A stretch of DNA of 64,000 bases. Origin: Thermoanaerobaculia bacterium. GTDB taxonomy: Bacteria > Acidobacteriota > Thermoanaerobaculia > UBA5066. Under the pieces are notes generated by a model, which saw nothing but the letters and a program-made list of their open reading frames with translations, was not told where the DNA came from and did no database searches. The position numbers and the translations under genes were made by a program. Each line of letters opens with the position of its first letter. Position 1 is the first letter of the stretch. Shown here one piece after another: positions 599-39,960 of this stretch. Location of the stretch: contig CAWFJJ010000005.1 in assembly GCA_963816185.1 (NCBI GenBank), positions 192,001-256,000 of the forward strand, written 5' to 3'.

Positions 599-1864
599 AT
601 GTCAAGACTCGTTCCTCCCCATGGAAGCAAGGCCCTCCGACCGCTCCTCCTGAGCGGAAAGGAGTGCGAAGAGGAGATCCGGAAGGCGCGCTCGCTCAAG
701 AAAGTCCCGATGACGAGCCGCGAGACCTCGGACCTGATCATGATGGGAATCGGAGCCTTCACGCCCCTTCCGGGGTTCATGGGCTACGACGACTGGAAAG
801 GCTGCTGCGACGACTACAAGCTCGCCTCCCAGAAGAACCTCTTCTGGCCCATTCCTATCACGCTCTCGGCCGAGCCCGACCTGGGTGACTCGATCAAGAC
901 CGGCGAAGAGGTCGCTCTCTGGGACACCGAGACCGACGCCCTCATGGGCACCATGAAGGTGACGGAGAAGTACGTCATCGAAAAGGAATTCGAGTGCAAG
1001 CAGGTGTTCCGCACCGTCGACACCAAGCACCCGGGCGTCCAGAAGGTCATGGCCCAGCCGCCGGTCAACCTGGCGGGTCCGGTGAAGGTGGTCTCCGAGT
1101 CGTATTACCCCGAGATGTTCAAGGGGATCTATCAGCGTCCCGCCGAGGCCCGGAAGAACTTCGAGGACAGGAACTGGACCACGGTGGCCGCCCTGCAGCT
1201 TCGCAACCCCATGCACGGCTCCCATGCCTACCTCGCGTGGATCGCGATCGAGGTCTGCGACGGCGTCTACATCCACCAGCTCGTCGGCAAGCTCAAGGAA
1301 GGCGACATTCCCGCCGACGTTCGCGTGCGCGCAATCGACGCCCTAGTCAACAAGTATTTCCGCAAGGAGCGCGTAATCCAGGGCGGCTACCCCATGGAGA
1401 TGCGCTACGCCGGTCCGCGTGAAGCGCTCCTGCACGCCGTCTTCCGCCAGAACTATGGCTGCTCGCACCTCATCGTGGGGCGCGATCACGCCGGCGTCGG
1501 CGACTACTACGGCCCGTTCGACGCCCAGACGATCTTCCACGAGATCCCGTCGGACGCCCTGGCGCTCAAGCCTCTGCCGCTCGACTGGACGTTCTATTGC
1601 TACGAGTGCGGAAGCATGGCCTCGATGAAGACCTGCCCCCACGAGAGCAAGGCCGTCATAGACGAAAACGGCAAGTACAAGGGCGGCGCTCGCCTGCTGC
1701 TCTCCGGCACCCTCCTCCGGAAGCTCATGAGCGAAGGCAAGCCCGTGCCGTCCGAGTTCTCGAAGCCCGAGGTAATTGCCATCCTGAAGGAGTACTACGA
1801 CAAGCTCGAGGATAAGGTGGAGATCAAGCTCCACGGCGCGGCGACGGGGGACGTCAAGAGGTAG
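599..1864 (+). CDS. sat: Sulfate adenylyltransferase (ATP sulfurylase, dissimilatory type)
   Basis: '[10 protein letters not shown]', '[34 protein letters not shown]', Zn motif CxxC...CPH, 'LSGT'; RBS AGGAG. Confidence 0.97.
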
Positions 1865-1894
1865 TCGAAGACCTCGCCACTGAAGCCTCAGCTC

Positions 1895-1941
1895 CTCGAC
1901 GCATGCGTTCCAGCGGGACGCGTGCGTCGAGTTTTTCTTTT
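1895..1941 (+). terminator. Intrinsic terminator after sat
   Basis: 17-bp stem ctcgacgcatgcgttcc / gggacgcgtgcgtcgag followed by tttttctttt. Confidence 0.85.
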
Positions 1942-2007
1942 GCGAAATGCACGATTCGCAATTTGCCCATACTCCAACTTGACAACTATGGGATTGGGCA
2001 CTACGTT
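1940..2007 (+). promoter_or_regulatory. Sigma70-type promoter with overlapping inverted repeats upstream of the Rrf2 gene
   Basis: TTGACA (1979-1984)-17 nt-TACGTT (2002-2007); TTGCGAA-N8-TTCGCAA at 1940-1961; cccata...tatggg flanks the -35. Confidence 0.65.
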
Positions 2008-2013
2008 GCGCTT

Positions 2014-2499
2014 GTGAAACTCGGTACACGCCCGCGTTACGCGCTCCGGATGATGCTCGAGATCGCCCGGCTCGGCGGGCAGAACGCCCCGGTGAGCCTG
2101 ACCACCGTCTCCGGGCACAGTCACCTCTCGCGAGGGTATCTCGAGCAGCTGGCGCTCGCGCTCAGAACCCGGGGCCTGCTCAAGGGCGTGTGCGGGAAGC
2201 AGGGCGGCTATCGCCTCGCCCGCGGCCCCGATGAGATCACGATCGGAGAGATCTTCGAGGCGGCGATGGGTCCCCTCAACATCGTCGAGTGCGTCAGCGA
2301 TCCGCTTTCGTGCATGCGCAGCGAGTCTTGCGAATGCCGTCCGGTCTATCAGCTGATGAACCGGCGTATCACCGAGGTGCTGCACGGTTTCACGCTTGCC
2401 CAGATGCTCGACCCGGGATGGGCGCAGGCGATGAAGGCTGACGCGGTTTCGGCGGGACCAACGGAGAGTCCGATCGCCGGGCGCGGTACGGGAGGGTAA
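2014..2499 (+). CDS. Rrf2/IscR-family transcriptional regulator, probably Fe-S binding
   Basis: 'RYALRMML', 'SRGYLEQL', 'GKQGGYRLAR', Cys cluster 'ECVSDPLSCMRSESC'; GTG start at 2014. Confidence 0.92.
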   Translation: MKLGTRPRYALRMMLEIARLGGQNAPVSLTTVSGHSHLSRGYLEQLALALRTRGLLKGVCGKQGGYRLARGPDEITIGEIFEAAMGPLNIVECVSDPLSCMRSESCECRPVYQLMNRRITEVLHGFTLAQMLDPGWAQAMKADAVSAGPTESPIAGRGTGG

Positions 2500-2503
2500 T
2501 GCG

Positions 2504-3031
2504 ATGGTGGAAAAGAGAGTCGGGGATCACGTCATCAAGCTCGTCCGCGGCGACATCACGGACCTCGCGGTGGACGCGTTCGTCTACGACCTCACGGCCG
2601 ACTGCAAGCTGGGCTCGGGTTACGGCGGCGCGATCTCCACGCGCGGCGGGAAGGTCGTGCAGGACCAGCTCAACGCGGTCGGCACCCTGAACACCGGGGA
2701 GGCCGCCGTCACGACCGCCGGGAACCTGAAGGCCAAGTTCATCATCCACGTGAACGGCCCCAAGTTCCACGAGCCGGACACGCGCGGCAAGCTCGCACGA
2801 TCGGTGGAGAGCGCCCTGAAGAAGGCGGAGGAGAAGGGCCTCGACACGGTCGCCTTCCCGCCGATCGGGACAGGGCTCTACCAGGTGCCGCCGGACCTGT
2901 GCGCGAGCGTCCTTTTGGACACCGTGAAGGGGTACCTCGGCGGAAAGACCCGTCTCAAGGAGGTTCTCTTCGTCGCCGTCGACTCGCGCGAGTACAAGCC
3001 TTTTGCGGCTGCCTTGGAAGGGGGGGCGTGA
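2504..3031 (+). CDS. Macro domain protein with degenerate catalytic loop
   Basis: 'GDIT', 'IIHVNGP', 'AFPPIGTGLY'; the usual NAAN is replaced by YDLT. Confidence 0.85.
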   Translation: MVEKRVGDHVIKLVRGDITDLAVDAFVYDLTADCKLGSGYGGAISTRGGKVVQDQLNAVGTLNTGEAAVTTAGNLKAKFIIHVNGPKFHEPDTRGKLARSVESALKKAEEKGLDTVAFPPIGTGLYQVPPDLCASVLLDTVKGYLGGKTRLKEVLFVAVDSREYKPFAAALEGGA

Positions 3032-3032
3032 C

Positions 3033-3719
3033 ATGCCCGCCACCGAGCCCTCCCGTTTGCTGCACTCGGTCGAGATCATCCACTGGACTGCTCTCGGCGT
3101 AATGGCCATGGTCTACCTCCTGCGCATCCGCTGGCTGCTCTCCTTCCGCGCCACACGCGACCGCCAGACGCCGAGTGCGCCGTCCCGCACCGGCGCCCAG
3201 AGAGGGGCCATGTACTCGCTGGCCAACGTCATGATGCCCTGGGCGATGGAGAGCACCCGGCGGGGGTTTCCCTTCTACCTGACCTTCGTGCTGTTCCATC
3301 TCGGCGTCGTGGCCGGCATTTCCCTCGCGTTCCTTTCCACGATCTCCCGATCGTTCCTGCAGATTTCCGCGGTGGCCACGGTCACACTCTCCCTGCTCGT
3401 CGCCGCATTCCTCATCGGCCTTTACCGCATCGCGCGCCGGCTGCTCCGCCGCGTCATGCGGCTGATCTCGACCCCGGACGACTACTTCTCCGTCGCGCTC
3501 CTGACCTCGTGGTTCCTGCTCGGGGCCTTCGCCGAGCTGCACCTCCTCGGCAAAGTCGGCGGAGAGGGCGTGATGGTGGCGTACCTGCTCCTCACGAGCT
3601 TCTTCCTGCTTTACGTCCCGTTCTCGAAGATCTCGCACTACCTCTACTACCCGTTCACCCGGATCTGGCTCGGGCGGACGCTGGGTCACCGCGGGGTCTT
3701 CCCGCTCTTGAGAGGATGA
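3033..3719 (+). CDS. NarI/TmcC/HmcE/DsrM-like membrane cytochrome b subunit
   Basis: About five TM helices; 'FHLGV', 'RLISTPDDYFS', 'PFSKISHY'; adjacent to a CCG-domain subunit. Confidence 0.8.
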   Translation: MPATEPSRLLHSVEIIHWTALGVMAMVYLLRIRWLLSFRATRDRQTPSAPSRTGAQRGAMYSLANVMMPWAMESTRRGFPFYLTFVLFHLGVVAGISLAFLSTISRSFLQISAVATVTLSLLVAAFLIGLYRIARRLLRRVMRLISTPDDYFSVALLTSWFLLGAFAELHLLGKVGGEGVMVAYLLLTSFFLLYVPFSKISHYLYYPFTRIWLGRTLGHRGVFPLLRG

Positions 3720-3729
3720 GGAGATCACC

Positions 3730-5487
3730 ATGAGCGCGAACGACAGCACCTACAAGATCCAGGCGATGCGGGATCTGCTCGCCAAGAAGCTGACGCGGCC
3801 CGTCGTCGGCTCCCTGGTCGGCTGCGTCCACTGCGGGATGTGCAACGAGGCGTGCCACTACGTCATGACGCATCCCGAAGACCCGAAGATGACGCCTTCG
3901 TTCAAGGCCGACCAGCTCCGCAAGCTGTTCAAGTACAACTTCGACTGGACGGGCAAGGTGTTCCCCTGGTGGGTCGGGGCGAAGGAGCCGTTGACCGACG
4001 CCGATCTCGACGTGCTCAAGGACATCGCCTTCGGGACGTGCACCAACTGCCGCCGCTGCACCTTCAACTGCCCCATGGGGGTCGACACCGCGGTGCTCAA
4101 CCGTGTCATGCGCGGCCTGCTCGCCTCGGTCGGCGTGATGCCCGAAGGCGTCCGCGTCGTTTCCAAGGACCAGTGGGAGATCGGCAACCAGATGGGCGTT
4201 CTCAAGGAGGACTACCTGGAGACGCTCGACTGGATGTCCGAAGAGCTCGTGAAGGAAGTCAACGACCCGAATGCGCGCATTCCCGTCGACAAGCCGAACT
4301 GCGACGTGATCTACACCATCAACCCACGCGAGGCAAAGTACGATCCGCGCACGATCTCGGCCGCGGCCAAGATCTTCTGGGCGGCCGGAGAGAGCTGGAC
4401 CATGCCTTCCGAGGGCTGGGACCAGACCAACTTCGGGCTGTTCTCCGGCGACGACGCCCTCGGCGGCGCCGCCGCCCGCCGCGTCTACGAGAAGATGAAG
4501 GAGCTGAACGCCAAGAGGATCGTGATCTCGGAGTGCGGTCACGGTTACCGCTCGACGCGCTGCGAGGGACCCAACTGGGCGGGGATCGACCAGAATTTCG
4601 AGATGGAGAGCTCCATCTTCACGATGCTCCGGTATCTCAAGGACGGGCGCATCAAAGTCGATCAGGCGAAGCTCCGGGAACGCGTGACCTATCACGACTC
4701 CTGCAATCTGGCCCGCTCGTGCGGCATCACCGAGGAGCCGCGCGAGCTGTTGCGGGCCGTGGCGACCGACTTCGTCGAGATGGTTCCCAACCGCGCCGAG
4801 AATTTCTGCTGCACGGGCGGCGGCGGAGCGATGTCGATGTCGGAGTACACGCCCCGGCGCCTGAAGTCGGCGAAGGTCAAGGCCGACCAGATCGCGGCGA
4901 CCGGCGCGAAGATCGTCGTCACCTCGTGCCACAACTGTGTCGACGGGCTAAACGACCTGATCAAGCACTACAAGCTCGGCTGCGAGGTGAAACAGCTCGT
5001 GGACCTCGTTGCCGATGCACTCATCATCCCGGAATGCGCGGTGATGAGACGACCGAAGGCGGTGGTGGAGATGCCGAAACCTGCACAGGCGTTGAAAGAG
5101 AGGCGGATCCTGGTGGTGGACGACGAGGCCGACATCCGGACGTTCCTCAGGACGGTCCTCGAGGATGCCGGTGCCGAAGTCTACGAGGCCGCCGATGGCA
5201 ACCAGGCCCTCGCCCAGGCCCGCAAGTACAAGCCCGACCTGATCACCCTCGACCTGTCGATGGAGCACAAGGACGGCATCGAGACGTTCGCCGAGCTGCG
5301 CTCCGACGACGCACTCGCGGGAATCCCGGTTTGCGTCGTCACCGGCCACCCGGAGTTCCGCCAGGTTCTCTATTCCCGCGCCGTGCCTCCGCCCGACGGA
5401 TACATGGACAAGCCGATCAAGGAAGACGAGCTGGTCGAGAACGTGTGGCGCATCCTCGGACTCCACAATCACAAGGTCCATGCCTGA
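3730..5487 (+). CDS. TmcB/HmcF/DsrK-like Fe-S CCG-domain oxidoreductase fused to a C-terminal receiver domain
   Basis: CVHCGMCNEAC and CTNCRRCTFNCP; 'ECGH', 'YHDSCN', 'CCTGGGG', 'CHNC'; from about 5104 'RILVVDD...PDLITLDLSM...VVTG...DKP'. Confidence 0.88.
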   Translation: MSANDSTYKIQAMRDLLAKKLTRPVVGSLVGCVHCGMCNEACHYVMTHPEDPKMTPSFKADQLRKLFKYNFDWTGKVFPWWVGAKEPLTDADLDVLKDIAFGTCTNCRRCTFNCPMGVDTAVLNRVMRGLLASVGVMPEGVRVVSKDQWEIGNQMGVLKEDYLETLDWMSEELVKEVNDPNARIPVDKPNCDVIYTINPREAKYDPRTISAAAKIFWAAGESWTMPSEGWDQTNFGLFSGDDALGGAAARRVYEKMKELNAKRIVISECGHGYRSTRCEGPNWAGIDQNFEMESSIFTMLRYLKDGRIKVDQAKLRERVTYHDSCNLARSCGITEEPRELLRAVATDFVEMVPNRAENFCCTGGGGAMSMSEYTPRRLKSAKVKADQIAATGAKIVVTSCHNCVDGLNDLIKHYKLGCEVKQLVDLVADALIIPECAVMRRPKAVVEMPKPAQALKERRILVVDDEADIRTFLRTVLEDAGAEVYEAADGNQALAQARKYKPDLITLDLSMEHKDGIETFAELRSDDALAGIPVCVVTGHPEFRQVLYSRAVPPPDGYMDKPIKEDELVENVWRILGLHNHKVHA

Positions 5488-5526
5488 CACGGCGGGCGCC
5501 GCCTCGGAAGGAACAGGGAGGCCCCT

Positions 5527-6951
5527 GTGACGGAGCGGTGTCGCGAGTACTTCGAGGAGATGCCGTGTTACGTCTCGGTGCACGACCGCGACCTTCGCAT
5601 CGTGGCCGCGAACCGGCGATTCCGCGAAGACTTCGGCGACGCCGTCGGCGCGTTGTGCTACCAGGCCTACAAGGGACGTCACGAGGTCTGTCCGGATTGC
5701 CCCGTGCAGCAGACCTTCCGGGAAGGCCGGGGTCAGATCAGCGAGCAAACCCTCGTCGCCAAGAGCGGCGAGCACGTACCTGTTCGCGTCTGGACGACGC
5801 CGATCCTCGATGCGAAAGGGCAGGTCGGGGCCGTCATGGAGATGCACACCGACCTCCGCCCGTTCAAGGCTCTGGAGGCCCGGCTGGAGCGGACGCAGGC
5901 GCGCTACGCGCAGCTTTTCGAGGAGGTTCCGTGCTTCATCTCCGTGCAAGGCCGAGACCGGATCATCCAGCACGCGAACCGGAGGTTTCGGGAGACTTTC
6001 GGCGACGCCGTCGGGAAGCACTGCTGGCGCGTTTACAAGCACCGCGATGAGCCGTGCCTCGTCTGTACGCCGCAGCCCACGTTCGACACCGGAGCGCCGA
6101 CCGAGCACGAGGAGGTCGTGGTCTCCCTGTCGGGCCGGACGATGCACGTAAGGTGCACGAGCGCGCCCGTTCGCAACTCGTCCGGGAAGGTGGAGGCGAT
6201 CATCGAGATGTCGACCGATATCACGCCCCTCCGGGAGCTGCAGTCCCAGCTCACGTCGATCGGCCTCCTCGTCGGGTCGATCTCCCATGGAATCAAGGGG
6301 CTTCTCACCGGGCTCGACGGGGGGATGTATCTGGTCAATTCGGGCTTCGAGAAGGACCGGCCCGACCGGGTCAGGCAGGGCTGGGCGATGGTGCAGCGCA
6401 ACGTCGAGCGGATCCGGTCCATGGTGCTCGACATCCTCTACTACGCCAAGGATCGAGAGCTCGAGGTTGCGCCCATCGAAGTCGAGCAGCTCGCTGTTGA
6501 GGTCGTCGAGTCCATGCAGAAGCGCGCCGGCGACGTCGACGTCGCTCTTTCCCTAGAAATCGAGCCGCAGGTCGGCGTGCTGGCCGGCGACGCCAAGGCG
6601 GTGCGGGCGATGCTCGTCAACATCCTCGAGAACTCGCTGGACGCCTGCCGCGCGGACACCGCCAAGACGGTTCATCGCGTCGAGTTCAGGGTGAAACGCT
6701 CGCCGCCGTGGCTCCTCTTCGAGATCGAGGACAACGGGATCGGAATGGACCGGGAGACCCGCGAGAAACTGTTCTCTCTCTTCTTCTCGTCGAAGGGGGT
6801 CAGCGGGACGGGGCTGGGTCTCTTCATCTCGAACAAGATCGCCGACAAGCACGGGGGCGGCATCGAGGTCGACTCGGAGCCGGGCCGCGGCAGTCGCTTC
6901 GCTGTCCGACTGCCGCTGGAGGCGCGTCCCAGCACCCAACCCGAGGAATGA
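5527..6951 (+). CDS. Soluble PAS-PAS sensor histidine kinase with Cys-rich PAS domains
   Basis: Two PAS-like repeats; H-box 'SISHGIKG'; 'NILENSLDA', 'DNGIG', 'GTGLGL'; no TM segments. Confidence 0.9.
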   Translation: MTERCREYFEEMPCYVSVHDRDLRIVAANRRFREDFGDAVGALCYQAYKGRHEVCPDCPVQQTFREGRGQISEQTLVAKSGEHVPVRVWTTPILDAKGQVGAVMEMHTDLRPFKALEARLERTQARYAQLFEEVPCFISVQGRDRIIQHANRRFRETFGDAVGKHCWRVYKHRDEPCLVCTPQPTFDTGAPTEHEEVVVSLSGRTMHVRCTSAPVRNSSGKVEAIIEMSTDITPLRELQSQLTSIGLLVGSISHGIKGLLTGLDGGMYLVNSGFEKDRPDRVRQGWAMVQRNVERIRSMVLDILYYAKDRELEVAPIEVEQLAVEVVESMQKRAGDVDVALSLEIEPQVGVLAGDAKAVRAMLVNILENSLDACRADTAKTVHRVEFRVKRSPPWLLFEIEDNGIGMDRETREKLFSLFFSSKGVSGTGLGLFISNKIADKHGGGIEVDSEPGRGSRFAVRLPLEARPSTQPEE

Positions 6952-6979
6952 GGGGACCGGCGCGAACCGAGGGGGAGCG

Positions 6980-7387
6980 ATGGCGGAGAAGAGAGTCCTC
7001 ATCGTCGACGACGACCCCGACGTCGTGGCCTACGTCACGTCCTTTCTCGAAGATCAGGGCTATGTCGCGCGATCGGCGGGCGACGCAGCCAGGGCCCTCG
7101 CCGTTCTCTCGAGTTATCGTCCCGACGCGATCCTGGTCGATGTGCTGATGCCCGGAAAGTCCGGACTCGACCTCCTCGTCACGCTGCGCCGCGACCCGCG
7201 CTGGCAGGACCTCCCGCTCGTCGTCGTCACCGGCATGGACCAGATTCTCGAGAAAGATTGTCAGTCGTACCTGCTCTCGCACGAGGGCATCAGCGGCCCG
7301 GACGCCGTGCTCGGCAAGCCCATCGACCGAAAGGCGCTCCTCGCCGTCCTCGCCTACGTCTGCGACCGTCTCCCTGCGCCTCGATGA
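6980..7387 (+). CDS. Single-domain response regulator (receiver only)
   Basis: 'VLIVDDD', 'DVLMPGKSG', 'VVTG', 'GKP'. Confidence 0.92.
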   Translation: MAEKRVLIVDDDPDVVAYVTSFLEDQGYVARSAGDAARALAVLSSYRPDAILVDVLMPGKSGLDLLVTLRRDPRWQDLPLVVVTGMDQILEKDCQSYLLSHEGISGPDAVLGKPIDRKALLAVLAYVCDRLPAPR

Positions 7388-7557
7388 TCGAGAGCGGGGA
7401 GGACCTTGGATGGTTACCGCCCCGACGCGACCCGGTCTGGAGACGGGACGTCACGGGAACGTAACAGACGGGTGCGGCGTGTGGCGCATCGGTGCTCCCC
7501 CGGACGAGAGAGAGGCCGCAATTGCAGACAGATCATCGGGCATGACGTGGACGGAGG

Positions 7558-7572
7558 CGGCATCAGGTTTGC
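7558..7572 (+). promoter_or_regulatory. Putative sigma54 -24/-12 promoter
   Basis: CGGCAT-N5-TTGC (GG-N10-GC) about 40 nt before the 7615 start, in a 230-bp intergenic gap. Confidence 0.6.
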
Positions 7573-7614
7573 GTTGAAGGAATTAGGCGCCGCTGAAGGT
7601 CTGCCGGAGGCCAC

Positions 7615-8010
7615 ATGACACAGCGAAGTGCAGTCGTCATCGACGACGAGCCGGACATCACTGCCTACCTCAGCGCCCTCCTTTCCGATCACGGCTGGAG
7701 GGTCCGTACCGCGAACGGAGTCGAGCAGGGGCTCAGACTCCTGGCCTTAGAGCGACCGGACGCGGTCCTCCTCGACCTCATGATGCCGGACCGAGGGGGT
7801 CTCACCGCTCTCGTGGCCATCCGAAAGGACCCTTCCCTCGCGGGGCTGCCGGTCGTCATCGTGAGCGGCATCCAGGAGAAGCTCACGTCCGACTACCACG
7901 CCTTCCTCGCCCGCGCCAAGCACCACCGGCCCGATGCCTATCTCGACAAGCCGGTCAACCCCAAGGAGCTGCTCCAGACCCTGGACAAGCTGGTCGCCGC
8001 AGCGGTCTGA
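7615..8010 (+). CDS. Single-domain response regulator
   Basis: 'VVIDDE', 'LDLMMPDRGG', 'IVSG', 'DKP'; RBS GGAGG. Confidence 0.92.
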   Translation: MTQRSAVVIDDEPDITAYLSALLSDHGWRVRTANGVEQGLRLLALERPDAVLLDLMMPDRGGLTALVAIRKDPSLAGLPVVIVSGIQEKLTSDYHAFLARAKHHRPDAYLDKPVNPKELLQTLDKLVAAAV

Positions 8011-8041
8011 GCAGGATCCTCACCGAATCGCGGCGAAGCCG

Positions 8042-9541
8042 ATGCCGATCATCTTCCTCTGTAGCGTGCCCTTCGGTGGCGGCGAGAGACTCGCCCGCCG
8101 CCTCGCCGCAAAGCTGGACTATGCCTACCTGAGCCGCGAGGACGTCGTCGCCAAGGCCAACGAGTGCGGCATCCCCGTGGGCAAGCTCGAGGTGGCCATG
8201 GTCAAGAAGCCCGCGGTGCGCGAGCGCCTGGCCCGCCTCAAGGAGCGATACCTCGCCGTCGCGACAGCGACGATTTGCGAGAGGGCCGCCGAAGGGGACC
8301 TCGTGTATCACGGGCGCGCCGGCCATTTCCTTCTTCCGGGCGTCTCGCACGTCGTCCGCGTTCGCGTCATCCCGGAGCACGGCGAACGCCTCGAGACCGT
8401 GATACAGCGGACAAAGCTGCCGCGCGAGAAAGCGGAGGATTTCCTTCGCAACATCGACGCCGACATACACGACTGGGTGCAGTTCGTCCACGGCGTCGAC
8501 ATGGACGACCTCCGCCGCTACGACCTCGTGGTCAACCTGGAGAACATCAGCGTCGAGAACGCCGCCATGGCGCTCTGCGGCATCGCCGACCTGCCCGACT
8601 TCAAGCCGACGCCGGCGAGCCGGAAAGCGATGGAGGAGCGGCTCCTGCAAGCCCGCGCCCGAATCCGGCTGGCTCTCGACGAACGGACCGCCGAGTCGGA
8701 CTTGACGGTCCGCTCGAGCGATGGCGTCGTCACGGTCACGTACGTGCCCCGCCAGTCCGCCGTGGCGACGGCGATTCCGGAGGTCCTTCGCGATCTGCCC
8801 GGCTGCCGGGCGGTCCGCTGCACCGTCGCGAGCACCAACATCCTCTGGATTCAGGAAGAGTTCCGCCCGGACGCCGAAACATTGCCGCAGATCAACGAGC
8901 TCGCCCGGCGCTGGGGGGCGGCCGTAGAGCTCGTCCGCTACCGGACAGAGGCGGCTTCGGAGGCTGCACTCGCTCCGCACGCGGCCGGGCCGCTGCCGAG
9001 GCCGCCCGATGGCGGCGTGGAGGACGACGACGTCGAGACGGTTTCGACGTCCGAGCGAGACTTCCGCGAAACGCTGGAGCTCTTCGTCCACGAAGGGCGC
9101 TCCGGGGGAAGCCAGAGCGTCTCGGGAGGACCCGACCGGCTTCTCGCGGCGATCAATCCGGACATCAGCTACAGCCTCATGGTCCTGGGCGACGTCTTCC
9201 TCGACAGGCCGTCGGCCGCGCGCACCCGCATGGCGCGAGATCTGGCCAATTTCCTCGCGAGAAAGGTGAAGGCGCCGGTGATCGGGACCGCCGAGCTGTC
9301 CGCGAGGCTCCGCTTCAGCTTTGGCCAGGGAATCAAAGTCGCCGCGGCGCTGCTCGTCATCGTCGGCCTCTACGTGCTCATCTTCCACTACCAGGAGCCG
9401 CTCCTCGACGTGCTCGGCGGCGCTTACCACAAGAAACAGCCCTGGGCCGCTCCGGTCCTGGTGGCGCTCGTCGCGCCCACCGTGGCCGCGCTGTACGGGA
9501 TGGTGGCCTCGGCGCTTCTCAGGCTGATACGGCTGGAGTGA
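8042..9541 (+). CDS. Cytidylate-kinase-like domain protein with BON-like middle region and C-terminal two-TM module
   Basis: 'GGGERLARRLAAKLDY', 'VYHGRAGHFLL', 'YDLVVNL'; hydrophobic C-terminus. Confidence 0.75.
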   Translation: MPIIFLCSVPFGGGERLARRLAAKLDYAYLSREDVVAKANECGIPVGKLEVAMVKKPAVRERLARLKERYLAVATATICERAAEGDLVYHGRAGHFLLPGVSHVVRVRVIPEHGERLETVIQRTKLPREKAEDFLRNIDADIHDWVQFVHGVDMDDLRRYDLVVNLENISVENAAMALCGIADLPDFKPTPASRKAMEERLLQARARIRLALDERTAESDLTVRSSDGVVTVTYVPRQSAVATAIPEVLRDLPGCRAVRCTVASTNILWIQEEFRPDAETLPQINELARRWGAAVELVRYRTEAASEAALAPHAAGPLPRPPDGGVEDDDVETVSTSERDFRETLELFVHEGRSGGSQSVSGGPDRLLAAINPDISYSLMVLGDVFLDRPSAARTRMARDLANFLARKVKAPVIGTAELSARLRFSFGQGIKVAAALLVIVGLYVLIFHYQEPLLDVLGGAYHKKQPWAAPVLVALVAPTVAALYGMVASALLRLIRLE

Positions 9542-9588
9542 GCGCGTGAGAGTCACCTTCCGCCTTCGATCCGACAAGGAGACGTGAA

Positions 9589-10665
9589 ATGCCCTCTGTG
9601 TTCGGCGACGTCTTCGTTCAGATCTCCTGGACGACCGCGCTCCTCGTCATCCTGCTCGGCTTCATCGGGGGAGTGCTGAGCGGCTTCATCGGCAGCGGGG
9701 GCGCCTTCTTCATGACGCCCGGCATGATGAACCTCGGCATCTCGGGCGTCGTCGCGGTCGGAAGCAACATCACGCACAAGTTCGGCAAGGCGCTCATCGG
9801 CGCTCGAAAGCACGCCCAGATGGGCAATGTCGACAAGCGCTTGGCGATGTATCTCCTCGTCACCGCGATCGCGGGGGTGCGACTCGCGGTCTGGATCAAC
9901 AGCAAGCTGTTCTCCGGCGGAGGCAAAGGCGCGGGGGCCGACCTCTACATCAGCACCGTCTTCATCACCATCCTGACGTTCGTCGGAATCTCGATGCTCC
10001 GCGATGCGATGCGCTCGACCTCGGAAGGCCAGGGCCCGTCACGCCGCATCATCGAGTTCCTCGCGCGGCTCAACCTCAAGCCGATCATCCGGTTCCCCGT
10101 GTCGGACGTGGACCTCTCTCTCTGGGTCGTGCTTCCCGTCGGCCTGGCGACCGGCTATCTGGCGGGCACCATCGGCGTCGGCGGCTTCATCGGGGTGCCC
10201 GCGATGATCTACATCTTCGGCATCCCCACGGCCGTGGCGGCCGGAACCGAGCTCTACCTCGCCATCTTCATGGGGGCCTTCGGCGCGCTGAATTACGCCT
10301 ACGAGGGGTGCGTCGATCTGCGCCTGACGTGCCTGCTGTTCCTCGGCTCGCTGTTGGGGGTCTACATCGGCGCGTACGGGGTCAAGGTCGTGAGCGAGCG
10401 CTACATCCGCCTCGTCACGGGCTTCATCATCCTGTTCTGCGTGGCCAGCCGAGCCGTCAACGTCCCCGTGTACCTGCGCCAACTGGGGGTCGTGAGGTAC
10501 GCCCCGGCCTGGGATCCCTGGTTCAACGGAAGCAGTACGGTGATTCTCTTCGCGGCGGGGATCGGCGGGGCCGCGCTCATCGTCTATGAGGTCTGGAAGG
10601 CCCACAGGGAGCGGCGCAGGATCCAGACGACGCTGCTCGTGAGCAGGGCGGCGACAACGTCCTGA
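9589..10665 (+). CDS. Sulfite exporter TauE/SafE family protein
   Basis: 'GGVLSGFIGSGGAFFMTP', 'GTIGVGGFIGVPAMIY', 'AAGTEL'; multi-TM. Confidence 0.92.
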   Translation: MPSVFGDVFVQISWTTALLVILLGFIGGVLSGFIGSGGAFFMTPGMMNLGISGVVAVGSNITHKFGKALIGARKHAQMGNVDKRLAMYLLVTAIAGVRLAVWINSKLFSGGGKGAGADLYISTVFITILTFVGISMLRDAMRSTSEGQGPSRRIIEFLARLNLKPIIRFPVSDVDLSLWVVLPVGLATGYLAGTIGVGGFIGVPAMIYIFGIPTAVAAGTELYLAIFMGAFGALNYAYEGCVDLRLTCLLFLGSLLGVYIGAYGVKVVSERYIRLVTGFIILFCVASRAVNVPVYLRQLGVVRYAPAWDPWFNGSSTVILFAAGIGGAALIVYEVWKAHRERRRIQTTLLVSRAATTS

Positions 10666-10677
10666 CGGGAGAGATCC

Positions 10678-11088
10678 ATGGAACGTCTCCAGGTGCTGGT
10701 CCTCGACGACGAACCCATCGTGGGCAAGCGGCTGCAGCCGGCTCTCGCCAAGGTCGGCTGCGACGTGGAGGTGTTCGACGCGCCTCGTCCGGCCCTCGAG
10801 CGAATCGAGGCAAAGCGGTTCGACGTCGTGGTGACCGACATTCGGATGGAAGAGATCGACGGCATTCAGGTCCTCGAGAGGGTCCTGGAGCGCTGGCCGG
10901 CCACCCTCGTGATCATGATCACCGGCTACGCCTCCGTCGAGGTCGCCCGAGAGGCCATTGCGAAGGGAGCCTTCGACTTCATCGCGAAACCTTTCAAGCC
11001 GCAGGAGCTTCGGGATGCGATCGCCAAAGCCGCGGATGCGCTCGGCTTCGCGGACGTCGGAAGGGCGGTCGTTCCGGAGGCCCCGTAG
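10678..11088 (+). CDS. Single-domain response regulator (NtrC-like receiver)
   Basis: 'LDDEPIVG', 'TDIRM', 'ITGY', 'AKPF'. Confidence 0.92.
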   Translation: MERLQVLVLDDEPIVGKRLQPALAKVGCDVEVFDAPRPALERIEAKRFDVVVTDIRMEEIDGIQVLERVLERWPATLVIMITGYASVEVAREAIAKGAFDFIAKPFKPQELRDAIAKAADALGFADVGRAVVPEAP

Positions 11089-11096
11089 GGAGGGCC

Positions 11097-12659
11097 ATGC
11101 CCCGAGACGGCTTGGACGCAGCCGCAAGCGGCCCCGACGCGATCAGTGTCGAGCGCGCTTTCCTCAAGCGTCCGAGCATCGGCATCCGGGCGCGACTGGT
11201 CACCAGCTTCCTCTCCTTCGTTTTGTTCGCGGTTGCGGTGACCATCGGGGCCTGGGTTCTGCTCGACCGCCTGGAAGGTCGCCTTCGCTTCCTGGAGGCC
11301 GCCGACCGCTACACGATGGAAATCCAGCAGACGCGACGCTTCGAGAAGAACTACTTCCTCTACGGAACGAACCTCTCCGACGTGCAGGACCACCTCGGAA
11401 ACGCGCGACATCTTCTCGAGGCCGCCGAGACGGATGCCGCTCGGGTGCTGACCTCGACCGAGCTCCGGCGGATGCGCGCCCATCTGAACGGCTACGAGTC
11501 TCTGATCGCGCGCCTCCTCTCCATTCAGGGCGGGCACTCTTCGGCGGACCCCCAGGAAAAGGGGGCCATCGAGACGGAGCTCCGGGACCACGGCTCTCAG
11601 ATGGTCGCCTTCGCCCTCGAGCTGGCCGACAAGGAGCGAAGCAGCGTCAATGCGACCCTCGGCCTCTTCAAGCGCCTTCCCGTGGCCTTTCTCGTATTCC
11701 TGTTCATCTTTTCGGTTTTCGTCGCCAACTTCCTCGCCCGCCAGATCGTCGGGCCTCTTTCTCGCCTCGGAGCCACCACGCAGCGAATCGCGAGCGGCGA
11801 TTTCACGCCCCTCACGCCCCAACGCTGGTACCGAGACGAATTCTCGAACTTTGCAATGGCCCTGAACACGATGATGCGGGAGCTCGCCCATCGGCAGGAG
11901 GTGTTGGTCAATTCGCACAAGCTCACGGCCATCGGAACGCTCACATCGGGGGTGGCCCACGAGCTGAACAACCCGATCAACAACATCACACTGACCGCCG
12001 AGATGCTCAAGGAGGATTACCGTGCCCTCGGGGACGAGCAGCGGCTCGACATGGTCAACGACCTGGTGGAGCAGGCCGGGCGGGCGCGGAAGATCGTGCG
12101 CAACCTGCTCGACTTCGCCCGGCAGAGCGAGATCACGACGCAGAAGCTCGATCTCGCCGAGGTCATCCGGGGTGCCACGGGGCTGGCCGCCAACCAGATC
12201 CGGCTCTCGGGCGCCCGGATTACGCTCGACGTCGCCTCCAACCTCCCCGCGATCCACGGCGACGGTCCGTCCCTGATCCAGGTCTTCGTCAACCTGCTGC
12301 TCAATGCCCTCGACGCGGTCGGAAAAGGGGGCCGGATCCGGATCGCCGCCGAGGGCCGGCAGGAGCCAGGCTGGGTCCGGGTGACGGTGACGGACGACGG
12401 CCAGGGGATCCCTGCTCACGCACTGCCGTACATCTTCGACCCCTTCTTCACGACGAAGCCAAGGGGGAAGGGAACGGGCCTCGGGCTCTCCGTGAGCCTC
12501 GGTATCGTGCGCCAGCACGGAGGTGACATCCGCGTCGAGAGCGAGCCGGGGAAAGGGACGACGGTGACCGTTCTTCTCCCGGCCGCGATGGTACCGGGGT
12601 TGCCCGAGACGGAGTCGCCGCCGGCTACGCCCGCTGCGAAGACTTTGCCACGAGCTTGA
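11097..12659 (+). CDS. Membrane HAMP-domain sensor histidine kinase (NtrB-like)
   Basis: Two TMs around a periplasmic region ('RRFEKNYFLYG'), HAMP, 'AHELNNP', 'NLLLNALDA', 'GTGLGL'. Confidence 0.93.
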   Translation: MPRDGLDAAASGPDAISVERAFLKRPSIGIRARLVTSFLSFVLFAVAVTIGAWVLLDRLEGRLRFLEAADRYTMEIQQTRRFEKNYFLYGTNLSDVQDHLGNARHLLEAAETDAARVLTSTELRRMRAHLNGYESLIARLLSIQGGHSSADPQEKGAIETELRDHGSQMVAFALELADKERSSVNATLGLFKRLPVAFLVFLFIFSVFVANFLARQIVGPLSRLGATTQRIASGDFTPLTPQRWYRDEFSNFAMALNTMMRELAHRQEVLVNSHKLTAIGTLTSGVAHELNNPINNITLTAEMLKEDYRALGDEQRLDMVNDLVEQAGRARKIVRNLLDFARQSEITTQKLDLAEVIRGATGLAANQIRLSGARITLDVASNLPAIHGDGPSLIQVFVNLLLNALDAVGKGGRIRIAAEGRQEPGWVRVTVTDDGQGIPAHALPYIFDPFFTTKPRGKGTGLGLSVSLGIVRQHGGDIRVESEPGKGTTVTVLLPAAMVPGLPETESPPATPAAKTLPRA

Positions 12660-12996
12660 CGAGGTCCTTGAGCTTGAACGGCTTGGTCAGGAATTGAACG
12701 GCGCCGAGCGCGTCCGCTTCGTGGCTGGTCTCGATGGTGGCATACCCCGTGATCACGATGACACGGGTGCCGGGGGCTTTCTCCCTGATGAAGCGCAGCA
12801 CGTCCATGCCGCTCGGCCCGCGCATCTTCACGTCCGTGACCAGAACCCCGAAGGCTTTTTCCTTCAGCCGGTCCATGGCCGCCGTGCTGTCCGTGAAGAC
12901 CTCGACGTAGAAGCCCTCCTTCTCGAGAGCTGGCCGAAGACGGTCCCCGACGATCGGCTCGTCATCCAGGACCATGACATCTCTGTTTGGAGGCAT
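12625..12996 (-). CDS. Single-domain response regulator
   Basis: 'LDDEPIVGDRLRPAL', 'TDVKM', 'ITGY', 'TKPF'; resembles the 10678 protein. Confidence 0.9.
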   Translation of the reverse strand: MPPNRDVMVLDDEPIVGDRLRPALEKEGFYVEVFTDSTAAMDRLKEKAFGVLVTDVKMRGPSGMDVLRFIREKAPGTRVIVITGYATIETSHEADALGAVQFLTKPFKLKDLVKLVAKSSQRA

Positions 12997-27570: not shown

Positions 27571-28065
27571 ATGTCGGATTTCATTCTTTTTGACGAGGAG
27601 TTTCATCAGATCAAGGACGTCATCGGACGCCTGAAGGCGGATGCCCAGGCGAAAGTCGTCTTCATCGTCGACAAGAACGGACAACAGATCGCCGCCCAGG
27701 GCGACATTCAATCCCTCGACACGACGTCGCTCGCGTCGCTCACCGCCGGCAACGTCGCCGCGACGGATGGCCTCGCGCGGCTCATCGGCGAAAAGGAATT
27801 CCCCGTCCTCTTTCACGAAGGCGAGCGCGACAACGTCTATATCTCGATCGTCGGCCAGCGCGTCATCCTCGTCGTCATCTTCGACGAGCGCTCGTCTCTC
27901 GGCCTCGTGCGGCTGCGAGTGCGCAAAGCGAACGGCGAGCTCGAGCGCATCTTCGACACGATCCAGAGGAAGGTCGAGAGCGAAAAAACGCGCCGCCAGG
28001 AGGGCTACGACTCGCCGTTCGCCGAGATCACAGACGAAGACATCGACAGCCTTTTCCGCGAGTAG
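27571..28065 (+). CDS. mglB: Roadblock/LC7 GTPase-activating protein MglB
   Basis: 'SLASLTAGNVAAT', 'SLGLVRLRV', 'FAEITDEDIDSLF'. Confidence 0.95.
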   Translation: MSDFILFDEEFHQIKDVIGRLKADAQAKVVFIVDKNGQQIAAQGDIQSLDTTSLASLTAGNVAATDGLARLIGEKEFPVLFHEGERDNVYISIVGQRVILVVIFDERSSLGLVRLRVRKANGELERIFDTIQRKVESEKTRRQEGYDSPFAEITDEDIDSLFRE

Positions 28066-28071
28066 CCGCGC

Positions 28072-28656
28072 ATGACGTTCATCAACTACGCCGCGCGGGA
28101 GATCAACTGCAAGATCGTCTACTACGGACCCGGCCTCTGCGGGAAGACCACGAACCTGCAGTACATCTACGACCGCACGAACCCCGCCGCCAAGGGCAAG
28201 CTCATCTCGCTCGCCACCGAGACGGACCGGACTCTCTTCTTCGATTTCCTCCCGCTCGACCTCGGCACCGTCCGCGGCTTCAAGACGCGCTTCCACCTCT
28301 ACACGGTGCCCGGGCAGGTCTTCTACGACGCGAGCCGCAAGCTCATCCTGAAGGGCGTCGACGGCGTCGTCTTCGTGGCCGACTCGCAGGAAGCGCGCAT
28401 GGACGCGAACGTCGAGTCGCTCCAGAACCTCGAGAAGAACCTCGTCGATCACGGGTTCGACCTGCAGGCGATTCCATACGTCCTGCAGCTCAACAAGCGC
28501 GACCTGCCGACGGCCATTCCCGCCGAGGAGCTCTACCGCCAGCTCAATTTCAAGGGAGAGCCCACGTTCGAGGCGACCGCCCCGACCGGCCAGGGCGTCT
28601 TCGACACGCTCAAGGCCGTGGCGAAGCAGGTTCTGATGGAGCTGCGGAAGAAATAG
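28072..28656 (+). CDS. mglA: Small Ras-like GTPase MglA
   Basis: '[12 protein letters not shown]', 'RTLFFDFLP', 'TVPGQ', 'NKRD'. Confidence 0.97.
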
Positions 28657-31836: not shown

Positions 31837-33068
<1,232 letters not shown>

Positions 33069-34766: not shown

Positions 34767-36047
34767 TCAAACTGCGACGCTGAGACCCTCGCGCATCCGC
34801 GCCAAGTGATTCTCGACGGCGCGCAGGAATCCTTCTGGAAAATGTAGGGAGCTCGATCGCGCCCTAGAGAGAAACCCCGCAGTCGCCTTCACCGAGAGGG
34901 GCTCCACGGGAAACCGGAGAAACTCGTCTAGCGGGGGTGAACGTCGGCGCTTCGGCCATCTGGACACCCGCGCGGCATGTCGACCGTTGCCGACGTTCCA
35001 TGCGGCCCGAGGCCAAGACTGCCCTAGGCGGTGAGTCACGTCGCCGGAGGGGTCGTACTTCCCGGGTCGTCTGAGCCGCCTCCCGATCCACTCGGCGACG
35101 TCAACCGTGACCGCATTGCCGACGAGCTTCCATCGATGACCGGCGCGTGCCACCTCCTCGGCAGGTCTCGGTCCAATCAGCCGGGAAGCCTTGCATCCGC
35201 TCACAGTCCGCTAACGTCGGGCTTTCCGATGAAGCCCGACGGGAAAGAGAATAGCCGGGGGGGAGGGAATCCCGATCGTGGAGCCACCCTTGAGTGTCGG
35301 AACAGCGTTCACCGCCCAACCCAACCCACGGATCCCCTCGGTCCAGTAGAAGCCGCAGGCGACGGGCTCACGAGGAACCTGCTCGGGCTCACCGACATCG
35401 TCGACCAGAAGCACATCGCGGGGGTCTTCTTCCAGGCACGCGAGAAGATAAACGCGTTCACGGCGCTGTGGGAGGCCGAATGCTCTCGAATCGACGACTC
35501 GGTACGCCCACCGATAGCCGAGGTCTTCGAGGCTTGAGATGATCACGTCCAGCGCACGACCTCCGCCTAGCTGGAGCATGAAGGGCACGTTCTCCAATAG
35601 CACGAATGGAACCGGCTGGCGCTCGAGGATGCGGAAGATCTCACCGACGAGGCTAGATCTAGCCCCGGTGATCCCCTCCGTTCGCCCAGCCTGACTAAGG
35701 TCCTGGCAGGGAAAGCCGGCCACGAGAAGGTCGGTTCCATTCGGCAGGCGTACGACATCCCGCACATCGGGCGTAATCGGAATGCCGGGGAAGCGGCTCC
35801 TCAGCACGCTTGCGGCCGCCTCATCGAGCTCGCACAGCAGTCTGGTTTTGTGCCCCGACCGATGTAGGCCCCGTTCGATGCCACCGACGCCCGCGAAAAG
35901 GCCCACGACACCCAGCTCCCGAGTCTGTCTTTCCGAGCCCGAGGCCTTCCGAAAGGACCGAGACTTCTTCGCGGCAGGGAAGGAAAGAACCAGCTGTCTC
36001 CCTCCTTCTGCTCTAGTAGGGGAGTCGGGAACCCGCTTGCCAGCCAT
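34767..36047 (-). CDS. dcm: DNA cytosine-5 methyltransferase, apparent frameshifts near 35170-35250
   Basis: Motifs 'LFAGVGG', 'GFPCQD', 'ENV', 'QRRERVY'; 'ERMQGFP' and 'GNAV' in shifted frames. Confidence 0.9.
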
Positions 36048-37763: not shown

Positions 37764-37930
37764 GGAATGCCTCCTCGGGCGACAGCTCGAACCTGTGATT
37801 CGGCATGGGCTTGCGATGGATCGAGCAGGGACAGTATAGGCCCGTCGCGGGCCGGTCACAGGTTCGACAAGTCGCCTCGGGGGATGTCAGACTCCCCGCC
37901 AGTTTTTCGAGGGACCAGGAGGACACACGG

Positions 37931-39960
<2,030 letters not shown>

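Follow-up and report, generated by a model that had tools for sequence, protein, structure and literature searches.

In a 64,000-nucleotide stretch of DNA from a Thermoanaerobaculia bacterium (NCBI GenBank assembly GCA_963816185.1, contig CAWFJJ010000005.1, positions 192,001 to 256,000 of the forward strand; hereafter the window, numbered from its first letter), we identified a gene in which a catalytic iron-sulfur subunit of the HdrD/DsrK/HmcF/TmcB type is joined in one reading frame to a complete receiver domain. Since uncultured bacteria from many phyla carry this fusion with a dedicated sensor kinase next to it, a signalling pathway probably has the enzyme as a directly connected component. 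Our preferred reading, to which we assign a probability of roughly one half, is that the protein serves as the catalytic subunit of a two-subunit, DsrMK-like quinol:protein-(tri)sulfide oxidoreductase and is switched by the adjacent kinase.

The open reading frame (ORF) of the fusion (3730..5487, plus strand) starts with ATG, encodes 585 amino acids, and is interrupted by neither a stop codon nor a frame break. A ribosome-binding site (GGAGA) lies 7 nt before the ATG, which is located 10 nt past the stop codon of the preceding gene. Pfam assigned Fer4_8 to residues 31-118 (4.3e-09), CCG to residues 319-404 (2.2e-14), and Response_reg to residues 460-572 (2e-21; 76.7 bits against a cut-off of 30.2), and the protein was divided as follows.

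3730..5037, plus strand: catalytic HdrD/DsrK/HmcF/TmcB-like domain, amino acids 1-436 (Pfam, NCBIfam, and alignments)
5038..5103, plus strand: variable linker, amino acids 437-458 (low predicted local distance difference test score, pLDDT, and low identity in the alignment)
5104..5487, plus strand: receiver, amino acids 459-576 (about 5104-5457), with a short tail and the stop codon (Pfam Response_reg, 2e-21)

A preliminary description of this DNA had claimed one frame running from the ferredoxin motifs through a linker into the receiver, and this was borne out by the intact ORF, the linker of which contains neither a stop nor an indel. Since the window has a G+C content of 66.7% and long spurious ORFs overlap the genes in question, the assignment of the frame rests on domains and conservation and not on ORF length; the overlapping ORFs, found at 3840-6050 (+), 3655-4932 (-), and 4948-6288 (-) in other frames of the fusion and the following kinase gene, are typical artefacts of high-G+C DNA.

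The fusion was not confined to the source genome. A scan of one genome per species yielded 351 relatives, and the best 80 loci (L001-L080) were kept, all of them from metagenome-assembled genomes (MAGs) labelled as Acidobacteriota, Myxococcota or 'Deltaproteobacteria', Planctomycetota, Ignavibacteriota, Gemmatimonadota, Zixibacteria, Calditrichota, Fibrobacterota, and others. The enzyme and the receiver were encoded in one ORF at 71 of the 80 loci, in disagreement with the possibility that the homologs are always two genes. One further locus was fused but truncated by a contig end, two ended before the receiver, three had no receiver (L013, L054, and L068), and in three (L047, L073, and L079) the receiver lay in another frame or beyond a stop codon. 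Among the last group, a single linker frameshift in L047 and several frameshifts in L073 left a receiver without a start codon, whereas the linker of L079 contained a stop codon and its receiver was preceded by a Met, with a further frameshift inside the receiver.

Protein databases pointed in the same direction. In a search of approximately 5.8 billion proteins (3705 matches), 119 of the 120 best clusters inspected carried PF00072, with identities of 68-100% and lengths of mostly 577-628 amino acids; the lone cluster without it was a 501-amino-acid entry on a 3-kb contig. Several database fragments, such as P0123 and P0126, also spanned the enzyme-receiver junction. In the set clustered at 50% identity (1.84 billion representatives), the sole other full-length fused representative was P0121 (53% identity), and the next full-length relatives were unfused. 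The reference-like HmcF, TmcB, and DsrK representatives carried no receiver, in agreement with the earlier statement that such subunits normally lack a signalling domain. Many short receiver-only entries, 57-77% identical to the fused receiver, were also found, mostly on contigs of about 1 kb, and these may be fragments; at least one of them, P0359, seems to come from the contig of a full-length fusion, as judged only by the equal longest-contig value of 33389. The database provides no genomic context for these short entries, among which split genes, contig-end fragments, and paralogous free receivers are indistinguishable. Annotation pipelines name members of the fused family 'response regulator' or 'Fe-S oxidoreductase/CheY-like chemotaxis protein'. 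A literature search, which did not extend to subscription journals or to Figures S3 and S4 in the bioRxiv supplement to the paper on DsrMKJOP cited below, returned no description of an HdrD/HmcF/TmcB/DsrK-receiver fusion, and term searches of PMC2702500, PMC10504309, and PMC4215793 likewise found none. The fusion is not peculiar to its source genome and represents a widespread, apparently undescribed family.

The catalytic part contains two CX2CX2CX3C motifs, namely C32, C35, C38, and C42 (nt 3823-3855) and C104, C107, C110, and C114 (nt 4039-4071), and all eight of these cubane-cluster Cys residues were kept in each of the 71 aligned fused sequences, on which the residue and identity counts for the fusion are based. 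A five-Cys CCG motif (C325, C360, C361, C400, and C403; nt 4702-4938) was equally invariant (71/71), the residue after the Cys pair being Thr (CCT) here and Ser (CCS) in P0121 versus Gly in the canonical CCG. The first CCG-like half is degenerate and retains only the Cys (C269) of a SECGH sequence (nt 4528-4542). While the two ferredoxin motifs of the preliminary description were confirmed, its plural 'CCG domains' had to be corrected, as Pfam finds one. E268, C269, G270, and H271 were invariant in the fused family and in the representatives of HmcF (P0149), near-TmcB (P0160), and DsrK (P0146 and P0204).

According to the accessible text of the DsrMKJOP paper (10.1101/2023.08.03.551783), the CCG motif for a non-cubane cluster is CXnCCGXnCX2C, of which HdrD has two complete copies, and DsrK, HmcF, and TmcB have one together with a conserved Cys in T/GECGH. 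The same text shows DsrMKJOP to be an enzyme with menadiol:DsrC-trisulfide oxidoreductase activity, and describes HdrED of methanogens as a cytochrome b anchor with a cytoplasmic ferredoxin/CCG subunit that reduces a disulfide with electrons from the quinone-like methanophenazine (10.1101/2023.08.03.551783). Judged by its 4Fe-4S and five-Cys motifs, the catalytic part of the fusion is a member of the HdrD/DsrK/HmcF/TmcB superfamily, and with one CCG motif, the ECGH Cys, and a predicted NarI-type partner it displays the features of the DsrK/HmcF/TmcB group.

Within this group, the family could not be equated with any named member. HmcF (1.6e-102), TmcB (7.7e-94), and DsrK (1.1e-68) ranked first among the NCBIfam families for the N-terminal 436 residues, but the scores of 343.7 bits for HmcF (NF045711, cut-off 750), 314.7 bits for TmcB (NF045724, cut-off 735), and 231.9 bits for DsrK (NF045796, cut-off 400) place it outside all three equivalogs, as does the lack of their operon partners. 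A true HmcF representative, P0149, reached 926.6 bits and fell in a different clade from the fused family. This placement was examined in a quick IQ-TREE tree of 69 catalytic domains with the receiver cut away (that of the window, those of 28 loci picked from the 77 with an associated receiver so as to cover their diversity, those of the three receiver-less loci, and 37 representatives), which was midpoint-rooted and supported by the Shimodaira-Hasegawa-like approximate likelihood ratio test (SH-aLRT) only. The fused family formed one clade (SH-aLRT 100), HmcF/TmcB (100) and DsrK fell into clades of their own, and a larger group joined the fused family with HmcF/TmcB (93). The three receiver-less sequences occupied three separate branches within the fused clade, a pattern that fits three independent receiver losses; lacking an outgroup, however, the tree alone does not discriminate loss from gain. 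The branching was discordant with the phylum labels of the MAGs, Planctomycetota- and Spirochaetota-labelled sequences for example lying among Acidobacteriota, an indication of lateral transfer, mis-binning, or both; L001, at 89% identity the nearest relative of the window, bears the label Acidithiobacillales. Among relatives without a receiver, P0128 (549 amino acids, 45% identity) is the closest and carries a DsrC-fold domain at the C-terminal position of the receiver. As a proof of the substrate this domain was rejected, since it contains zero cysteines, and it only shows the affinity of the clade for DsrC-fold partners.

The receiver was found to be complete, with the DD pair, phospho-Asp, Thr, and Lys that had been noted in it: D464 and D465 were present in 70 of the 71 sequences, the phospho-acceptor D508 (nt 5251-5253) and K561 (nt 5410-5412) in all 71, and T538 in 69, with Ser in the other two. 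Y558 was kept in at least 90% of the aligned sequences. In the AlphaFold2 monomer model, pLDDT was 84-96 over most of the domain, and Foldseek matched its fold to DivK, RR468, CheY, and Spo0F with template modelling scores (TM-scores) of 0.87-0.90 normalised to the target. By its PF00072 score, (beta-alpha)5 fold, and phospho-switch residues, this domain is a genuine receiver. Its alpha4-beta5 region is unusually conserved (TGxPE...R...Y.R.VPPPxGYxDKP), and VPPPxGYxxKP also occurs in the free receiver 3' of the kinase in many distant loci, as well as in a free receiver following a DsrK-like paralogue in L004, L010, L015, and L049, among others. The two free receivers of the window, REC_A and REC_B, are more divergent from the fused one (33-34% identity). 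The best NCBIfam family of the fused receiver was DVU0259_DivK (73 bits against a cut-off of 160), and a literature search on DVU0258, DVU0259, and DVU0260 found no paper.

Across the 71 sequences, mean identity was 73% in the catalytic part, as expected for an enzyme under constraint, versus 59% in the receiver. The linker, of about 22 residues here and 12-58 residues in the family, averaged 26%. Residues 436-450 had pLDDT below 50 and the whole model a predicted TM-score (pTM) of 0.55, so that the fusion protein is predicted to consist of two well-folded domains joined by a flexible tether. A complex prediction of the receiver (455-585) with the catalytic domain (1-436) scored 0.00 and, lacking controls, counts neither way. 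Within the linker, GGAG (5067-5070) abuts an in-frame ATG (5071-5073, codon 448), which had been flagged as a possible internal start. The sequence is indeed present and in frame, but the spacer is 0 nt and any Met occurs in the linker of only 21 of the 71 homologues; given this and the low linker identity, an internal start at 5071 was rejected as a conserved feature, although it may be used in the source genome itself.

The genes around the fusion formed a conserved cassette, arranged on one strand with short gaps in the order (rrf2)-macro-cytochrome b anchor-fusion-soluble double-PAS kinase-single receiver. In the window, its elements were as follows.

1895..1931, plus strand: terminator-like hairpin after sat, with a 17-bp stem and a T tail (pattern match only)
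1903..2499, plus strand: Rrf2-family regulator with a C-terminal Cys cluster (Pfam Rrf2, 1.8e-28; NCBIfam rrf2_super, 97.5 bits against 73.3)
2504..3031, plus strand: macro-domain protein, ADP-ribose-binding or O-acetyl-ADP-ribose deacetylase-like (Pfam Macro, 6.1e-26)
3033..3719, plus strand: membrane anchor, HmcE/TmcC-like NarI-type cytochrome b (NCBIfam TmcC, 8.2e-13; HmcE, 1.6e-12)
5527..6951, plus strand: soluble PAS-PAS histidine kinase (Pfam PAS_4, PAS_9, and HATPase_c)
6980..7387, plus strand: single-domain receiver REC_A, 28 nt past the kinase (Pfam Response_reg, 1.8e-19)
7615..8010, plus strand: second single receiver REC_B, after a 227-nt gap (Pfam Response_reg, 3.4e-18)

Only loci with enough flanking DNA were assessed for each gene, hence the differing denominators. 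The anchor was found upstream of the fusion in 75 of 75 loci; the macro gene, which immediately precedes it, was present in 73 of 73, the three loci without a receiver among them. In the window, the macro gene is flanked by gaps of 4 nt to rrf2 and 1 nt to the ATG of the anchor. The PAS kinase followed the fusion in 62 of 67 loci, as the preliminary description had stated for the window, and a receiver followed the kinase in 51 of 62. Rrf2 was located upstream in 33 of 67, and a REC_B-type receiver lay near the cassette in some loci only, on either side and either strand, which is a looser link. The anchor, the listed ORF of which starts at TTG 3003, scored about 48 bits for TmcC/HmcE, far below the cut-offs, and contains roughly five hydrophobic segments. 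The kinase lacks such segments, and its phospho-His, H254, was invariant in 62 homologues. Each of its PAS domains carries four conserved Cys in the pattern C-x29-C-x10-C-x2-C (C44, C55, C58, C166, C177, and C180, 100%; C136, 98%; C14, 85%), which are probably redox- or metal-sensing sites and could hold an Fe-S cluster, a metal, or a thiol switch; no close solved structure covering the kinase PAS domains was found.

Five loci lacked the kinase, namely the receiver-less L013, L054, and L068 and, in addition, L066 and L079. The kinase was thus absent in 3 of 3 receiver-less versus 2 of 64 receiver-bearing loci (Fisher p = 2e-4, the three frameshifted or split loci being counted as receiver-bearing). 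This joint loss indicates that macro gene, anchor, and enzyme form the core, and receiver and kinase one add-on control unit, between the two members of which phosphotransfer is putative. In L013, the receiver-less enzyme was followed by unrelated genes (a split class-III aminotransferase), with delta-aminolevulinate dehydratase upstream. The conserved cassette contained no DNA-binding response regulator, the enzyme being the sole effector domain attached to the receiver, and no multihaem cytochrome c, HmcBCD, TmcA-, or TmcD-like genes.

The anatomy of the protein, its conservation, the gene cassette, and the loss of the kinase together with the receiver are observations; the identity of the substrate, the phosphotransfer, and both the direction and the outcome of control are inferred in the following model. 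The fusion would be the cytoplasmic catalytic subunit, and the NarI-type cytochrome b encoded just upstream would be the other subunit of a minimal membrane redox module. Electrons would pass from menaquinol via haem b to two cubane 4Fe-4S clusters and then to one non-cubane CCG cluster, helped by the SECGH Cys, and would end up on a protein with a disulfide or trisulfide, in all likelihood one of the DsrC type. At the C-terminus, a flexible tether would hold the canonical receiver, D508 of which would be phosphorylated by the co-transcribed soluble kinase. The phosphorylated receiver would then alter the activity of the catalytic domain or its access to partners, so that the passage of electrons between quinone pool and thiol/sulfur carrier of the cytoplasm would be throttled post-translationally; the paralogous downstream free receiver may share or compete for the phosphoryl group. 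Such phospho-control is favoured because the trio core is invariant, the fused receiver, kinase, and free receiver come and go together, no DNA-binding regulator is encoded, and the catalytic domain is the most conserved part.

Several observations weigh against this reading. Because the HmcF, TmcB, and DsrK cut-offs failed, the substrate is not transferable by orthology. In a Foldseek search of the whole model against the Protein Data Bank (PDB), the best match was EtfD of M. smegmatis (9ojn; E 1.7e-12), a mycobacterial electron-transfer protein unrelated to sulfur, followed by matches including LutA and many receivers; no DsrK, HmcF, or TmcB structure was present among the best 50 Foldseek matches, nor among the best 60 of 209 PDB sequence-search matches. 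The anchor has only two invariant His residues, H89 and H202 counted from ATG 3033 (65 homologues), not the four expected from the accessible part of the literature for the dihaem DsrM, and may therefore carry one haem instead of two. The receiver stands at the C-terminus, which is usual in hybrid kinases and phosphorelays and not in enzyme-output regulators, and with a pTM of 0.55 and a disordered tether the model offers no confident docking of the receiver on the enzyme. Finally, of the 80 loci only a minority have sulfur genes next to the cassette, most 8-kb flanks showing none.

The C-terminal receiver leads to the main rival explanation, which we consider possible but rather unlikely, in which the cytochrome b and the HdrD-like module form the input of the signalling pathway and read the redox state of the quinone pool or of the thiol/sulfur carrier. 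Here the tethered receiver would hold the kinase at the membrane, or the module would set the gain or loss of phosphate by the receiver, and the free receivers would carry the output. Such an arrangement accounts for the position of the receiver, like that in hybrid kinases and phosphorelay intermediates, for the Cys-rich soluble kinase without a membrane segment of its own, and for the free single receivers after the kinase (51/62 loci) equally well as phospho-control does; moreover, free receivers of the same VPPPxGYxxKP subfamily as the fused one would be expected in a branched pathway or as a phosphate sink, and an HdrD-like thiol/disulfide enzyme could in principle act on the four conserved Cys of each kinase PAS domain. 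On the other hand, the macro-anchor-enzyme trio persists without receiver, kinase, and free receiver in three independent lineages, which argues that the redox module has a function of its own. The invariance of the catalytic residues, the higher conservation of their domain compared with the signalling parts, and the lack of a downstream output domain in the conserved cassette also speak against this explanation.

As to the chemistry, sulfur genes lie near the cassette in the window and in some of the other loci. At the start of the window lies the C-terminal part of qmoC (NCBIfam, 9.4e-53), and sat (461 bits; cut-off 387) comes next, both directly upstream of the cassette; the remainder of the window is unrelated to sulfur. 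In the 8-kb flanks examined at the other loci, sat and/or qmoC also adjoined the cassette in L001, L021, and L040. A DsrK-like gene, 27-36% identical to the catalytic domain, was found within 8 kb in 11 loci (L004, L009, L010, L015, L036, L040, L043, L047, L049, L056, and L066); DsrK was its best NCBIfam family in L015, L040, and L043 (313-321 bits, below the cut-off of 400), and a NarI-type gene preceded it in L010 and L040. In a scan of 64 flanking ORFs of nine loci, L043 was further found to encode dsrC and a DsrL-like gene, L040 a QmoB-like gene, and L005 a multihaem c3/Fer4_11/NrfD set.

A second module was observed near the cassette in some of these loci, consisting of a DsrM-like gene, a DsrK-like gene (313-321 bits, again under 400), and a separate single receiver, at L015:14030-17107 (-), L040:11657-15086 (+), L043:11594-14549 (-), and L010:11404-14445 (+), and also in L004, L036, L049, and L066. 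As these modules carry a free receiver, with the VPPPxGYxxKP sequence in L004, L010, L015, and L049, the link between an HdrD-type subunit and this receiver type is recurrent.

An enzyme of different chemistry, namely a quinone-linked oxidoreductase of the HdrD/GlpC/EtfD type with a different donor or acceptor (for instance an electron-transfer flavoprotein, some other small thiol protein, or a disulfide of low molecular weight), would be compatible with either regulatory model but seems improbable to us. The EtfD fold match and the scores under every sulfur-specific NCBIfam cut-off are in its favour, as are the majority of the 80 loci, which have no sulfur gene within 8 kb, and the haem-biosynthesis genes that flank the cassette in L013 and L046. 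Against these stand the single CCG motif and (S/T/G)ECGH Cys, invariant here and, in the accessible description, the signature of DsrK, HmcF, and TmcB; the position of the family on the HmcF/TmcB side of the tree (SH-aLRT 93); the qmoC, sat, dsrMK-like, dsrC, or dsrL-like genes adjoining the cassette in the window and several loci; and the C-terminal DsrC-fold domain of P0128.

The cysteines of ArcB are oxidised directly by quinone. By comparison, the module described here could conceivably use electrons of the quinone pool to oxidise or reduce the four-Cys sites of the kinase PAS domains, be they thiols or an Fe-S cluster, with the tethered receiver docking the kinase at the CCG site and the complex serving as the input of a phosphorelay. 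We regard this enzyme-catalysed redox sensor as quite improbable; if true, it would be a protein-catalysed counterpart of the direct oxidation of ArcB.

Lastly, an artefact, in which an indel from sequencing or assembly joined separate enzyme and receiver genes, or translation from ATG 5071 is the normal source of a separate receiver, could draw on the GGAG-ATG in the linker, the three loci of 80 with a displaced receiver, and the many receiver-only entries, but is extremely improbable in view of the single frame in 71 independent assemblies of many phyla with linkers of 12-58 residues, the plain frameshifts without a receiver start in L047 and L073 and within the receiver in L079, the lack of a spacer after GGAG and of a conserved Met, and the contigs of about 1 kb from which most of the short, possibly fragmentary entries derive.

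Returning to the preferred reading of a kinase-switched oxidoreductase, the fused module may, by analogy of architecture, work like DsrMK, HdrED, HmcEF, and TmcBC. HmcF (of HmcABCDEF) and TmcB (of TmcABCD) of Desulfovibrio share with it the two 4Fe-4S motifs, one CCG motif, the (S/T/G)ECGH Cys, and an HmcE/TmcC-type cytochrome b partner. The fusion differs from them in scoring less than half of their cut-offs, in forming its own clade (SH-aLRT 100), in having CCT/CCS for CCG and an added C-terminal receiver, and in a cassette without multihaem cytochrome c, HmcBCD, or TmcD. DsrK of DsrMK(JOP) follows the same logic of a cytochrome b with an HdrD-like subunit and, in the accessible description, has the same catalytic signature, but lies in another clade, and the fusion reaches 231.9 of the 400 bits required for it. 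Since several genomes hold a separate DsrK-like gene (27-31% identical) nearby, the fusion is an additional module and not the DsrK itself. HdrD, as described in the accessible text, is distinguished by two complete CCG motifs, where the fusion has one and a SECGH remnant, and by the lack of a receiver.

Response regulators with an enzymatic output, of the CheB, PleD, or RpfG type, have an N-terminal receiver, and their outputs are signalling or modifying enzymes. The fusion resembles them in combining a receiver and an enzyme in one polypeptide with a dedicated kinase next door, and differs in the C-terminal position of its receiver and in the nature of the partner, an Fe-S subunit of a predicted membrane complex of respiratory type.

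In Desulfovibrio (Nitratidesulfovibrio) vulgaris Hildenborough, the accessible parts of three sources describe rrf1 (DVU_0530, a receiver protein) and rrf2 as lying beside hmcF (DVU_0531) and affecting hmc expression (10.1101/2023.11.02.564894; 10.64898/2026.06.30.735679; PMC10920352); the adjacency of rrf1 and hmcF was deduced from the consecutive locus tags. The window has the same three neighbours, an HmcF-type gene, a receiver, and an Rrf2 gene, with two of them joined. As far as those sources go, the genes are separate and the effect is on expression in D. vulgaris, whereas a covalently tethered receiver and a dedicated kinase are found here; the comparison is one of gene neighbourhoods. 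By this analogy, the window gene may be viewed as the fused counterpart of the hmcF-rrf1-rrf2 neighbourhood, and the HmcF-type subunit itself may be what such receivers act on. For Desulfovibrio, this provides the concrete hypothesis that Rrf1-type single receivers work by binding HmcF/TmcB-type subunits.

In sulfur-respiring organisms, little is understood of how electron flow is controlled at the junction of the quinone pool with the DsrC-type carrier of the cytoplasm, and the examples of control at this step known to us act on transcription. A receiver on the catalytic subunit together with a redox-type kinase would constitute a direct post-translational valve, or a sensor, at the quinone/DsrC step. 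In addition, the invariant macro-domain partner hints at a further, unexplored layer; we know of nothing linking macro domains to HdrD-type complexes.

With regard to the borders of the cassette, the hairpin at 1895-1931 probably separates sat from it. Two terminator-like sites were found in 1500-12900, compared with a shuffle mean of 5.9, and a promoter scan of the same region found none. The hairpin overlaps the first codons of the listed rrf2 ORF, the true start of which is probably near 2014, as the Rrf2 domain begins only at codon 39-42. Downstream, the region 7934-12659 (+) encodes a 535-amino-acid cytidylate-kinase-like protein with a hydrophobic C-terminus, a permease of the TauE/SafE sulfite-exporter family, a third single receiver, and a HAMP histidine kinase, and this block was common only to the closest relative, L001.

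Elsewhere in the window, an insertion-sequence-type integrase (rve) was located at 31840-32751 (-) and a truncated-looking C-5 cytosine methylase at 35214-36047 (-). An OPT oligopeptide transporter at 37805-39957 (+) is divided over two adjacent ORFs (profile positions 1-99 and 315-622), which may reflect a frameshift. A Roadblock/LC7 protein followed by a small Arf/Ras-like GTPase is encoded at 27571-28653 (+), a pair that we take to be MglB/MglA-like.

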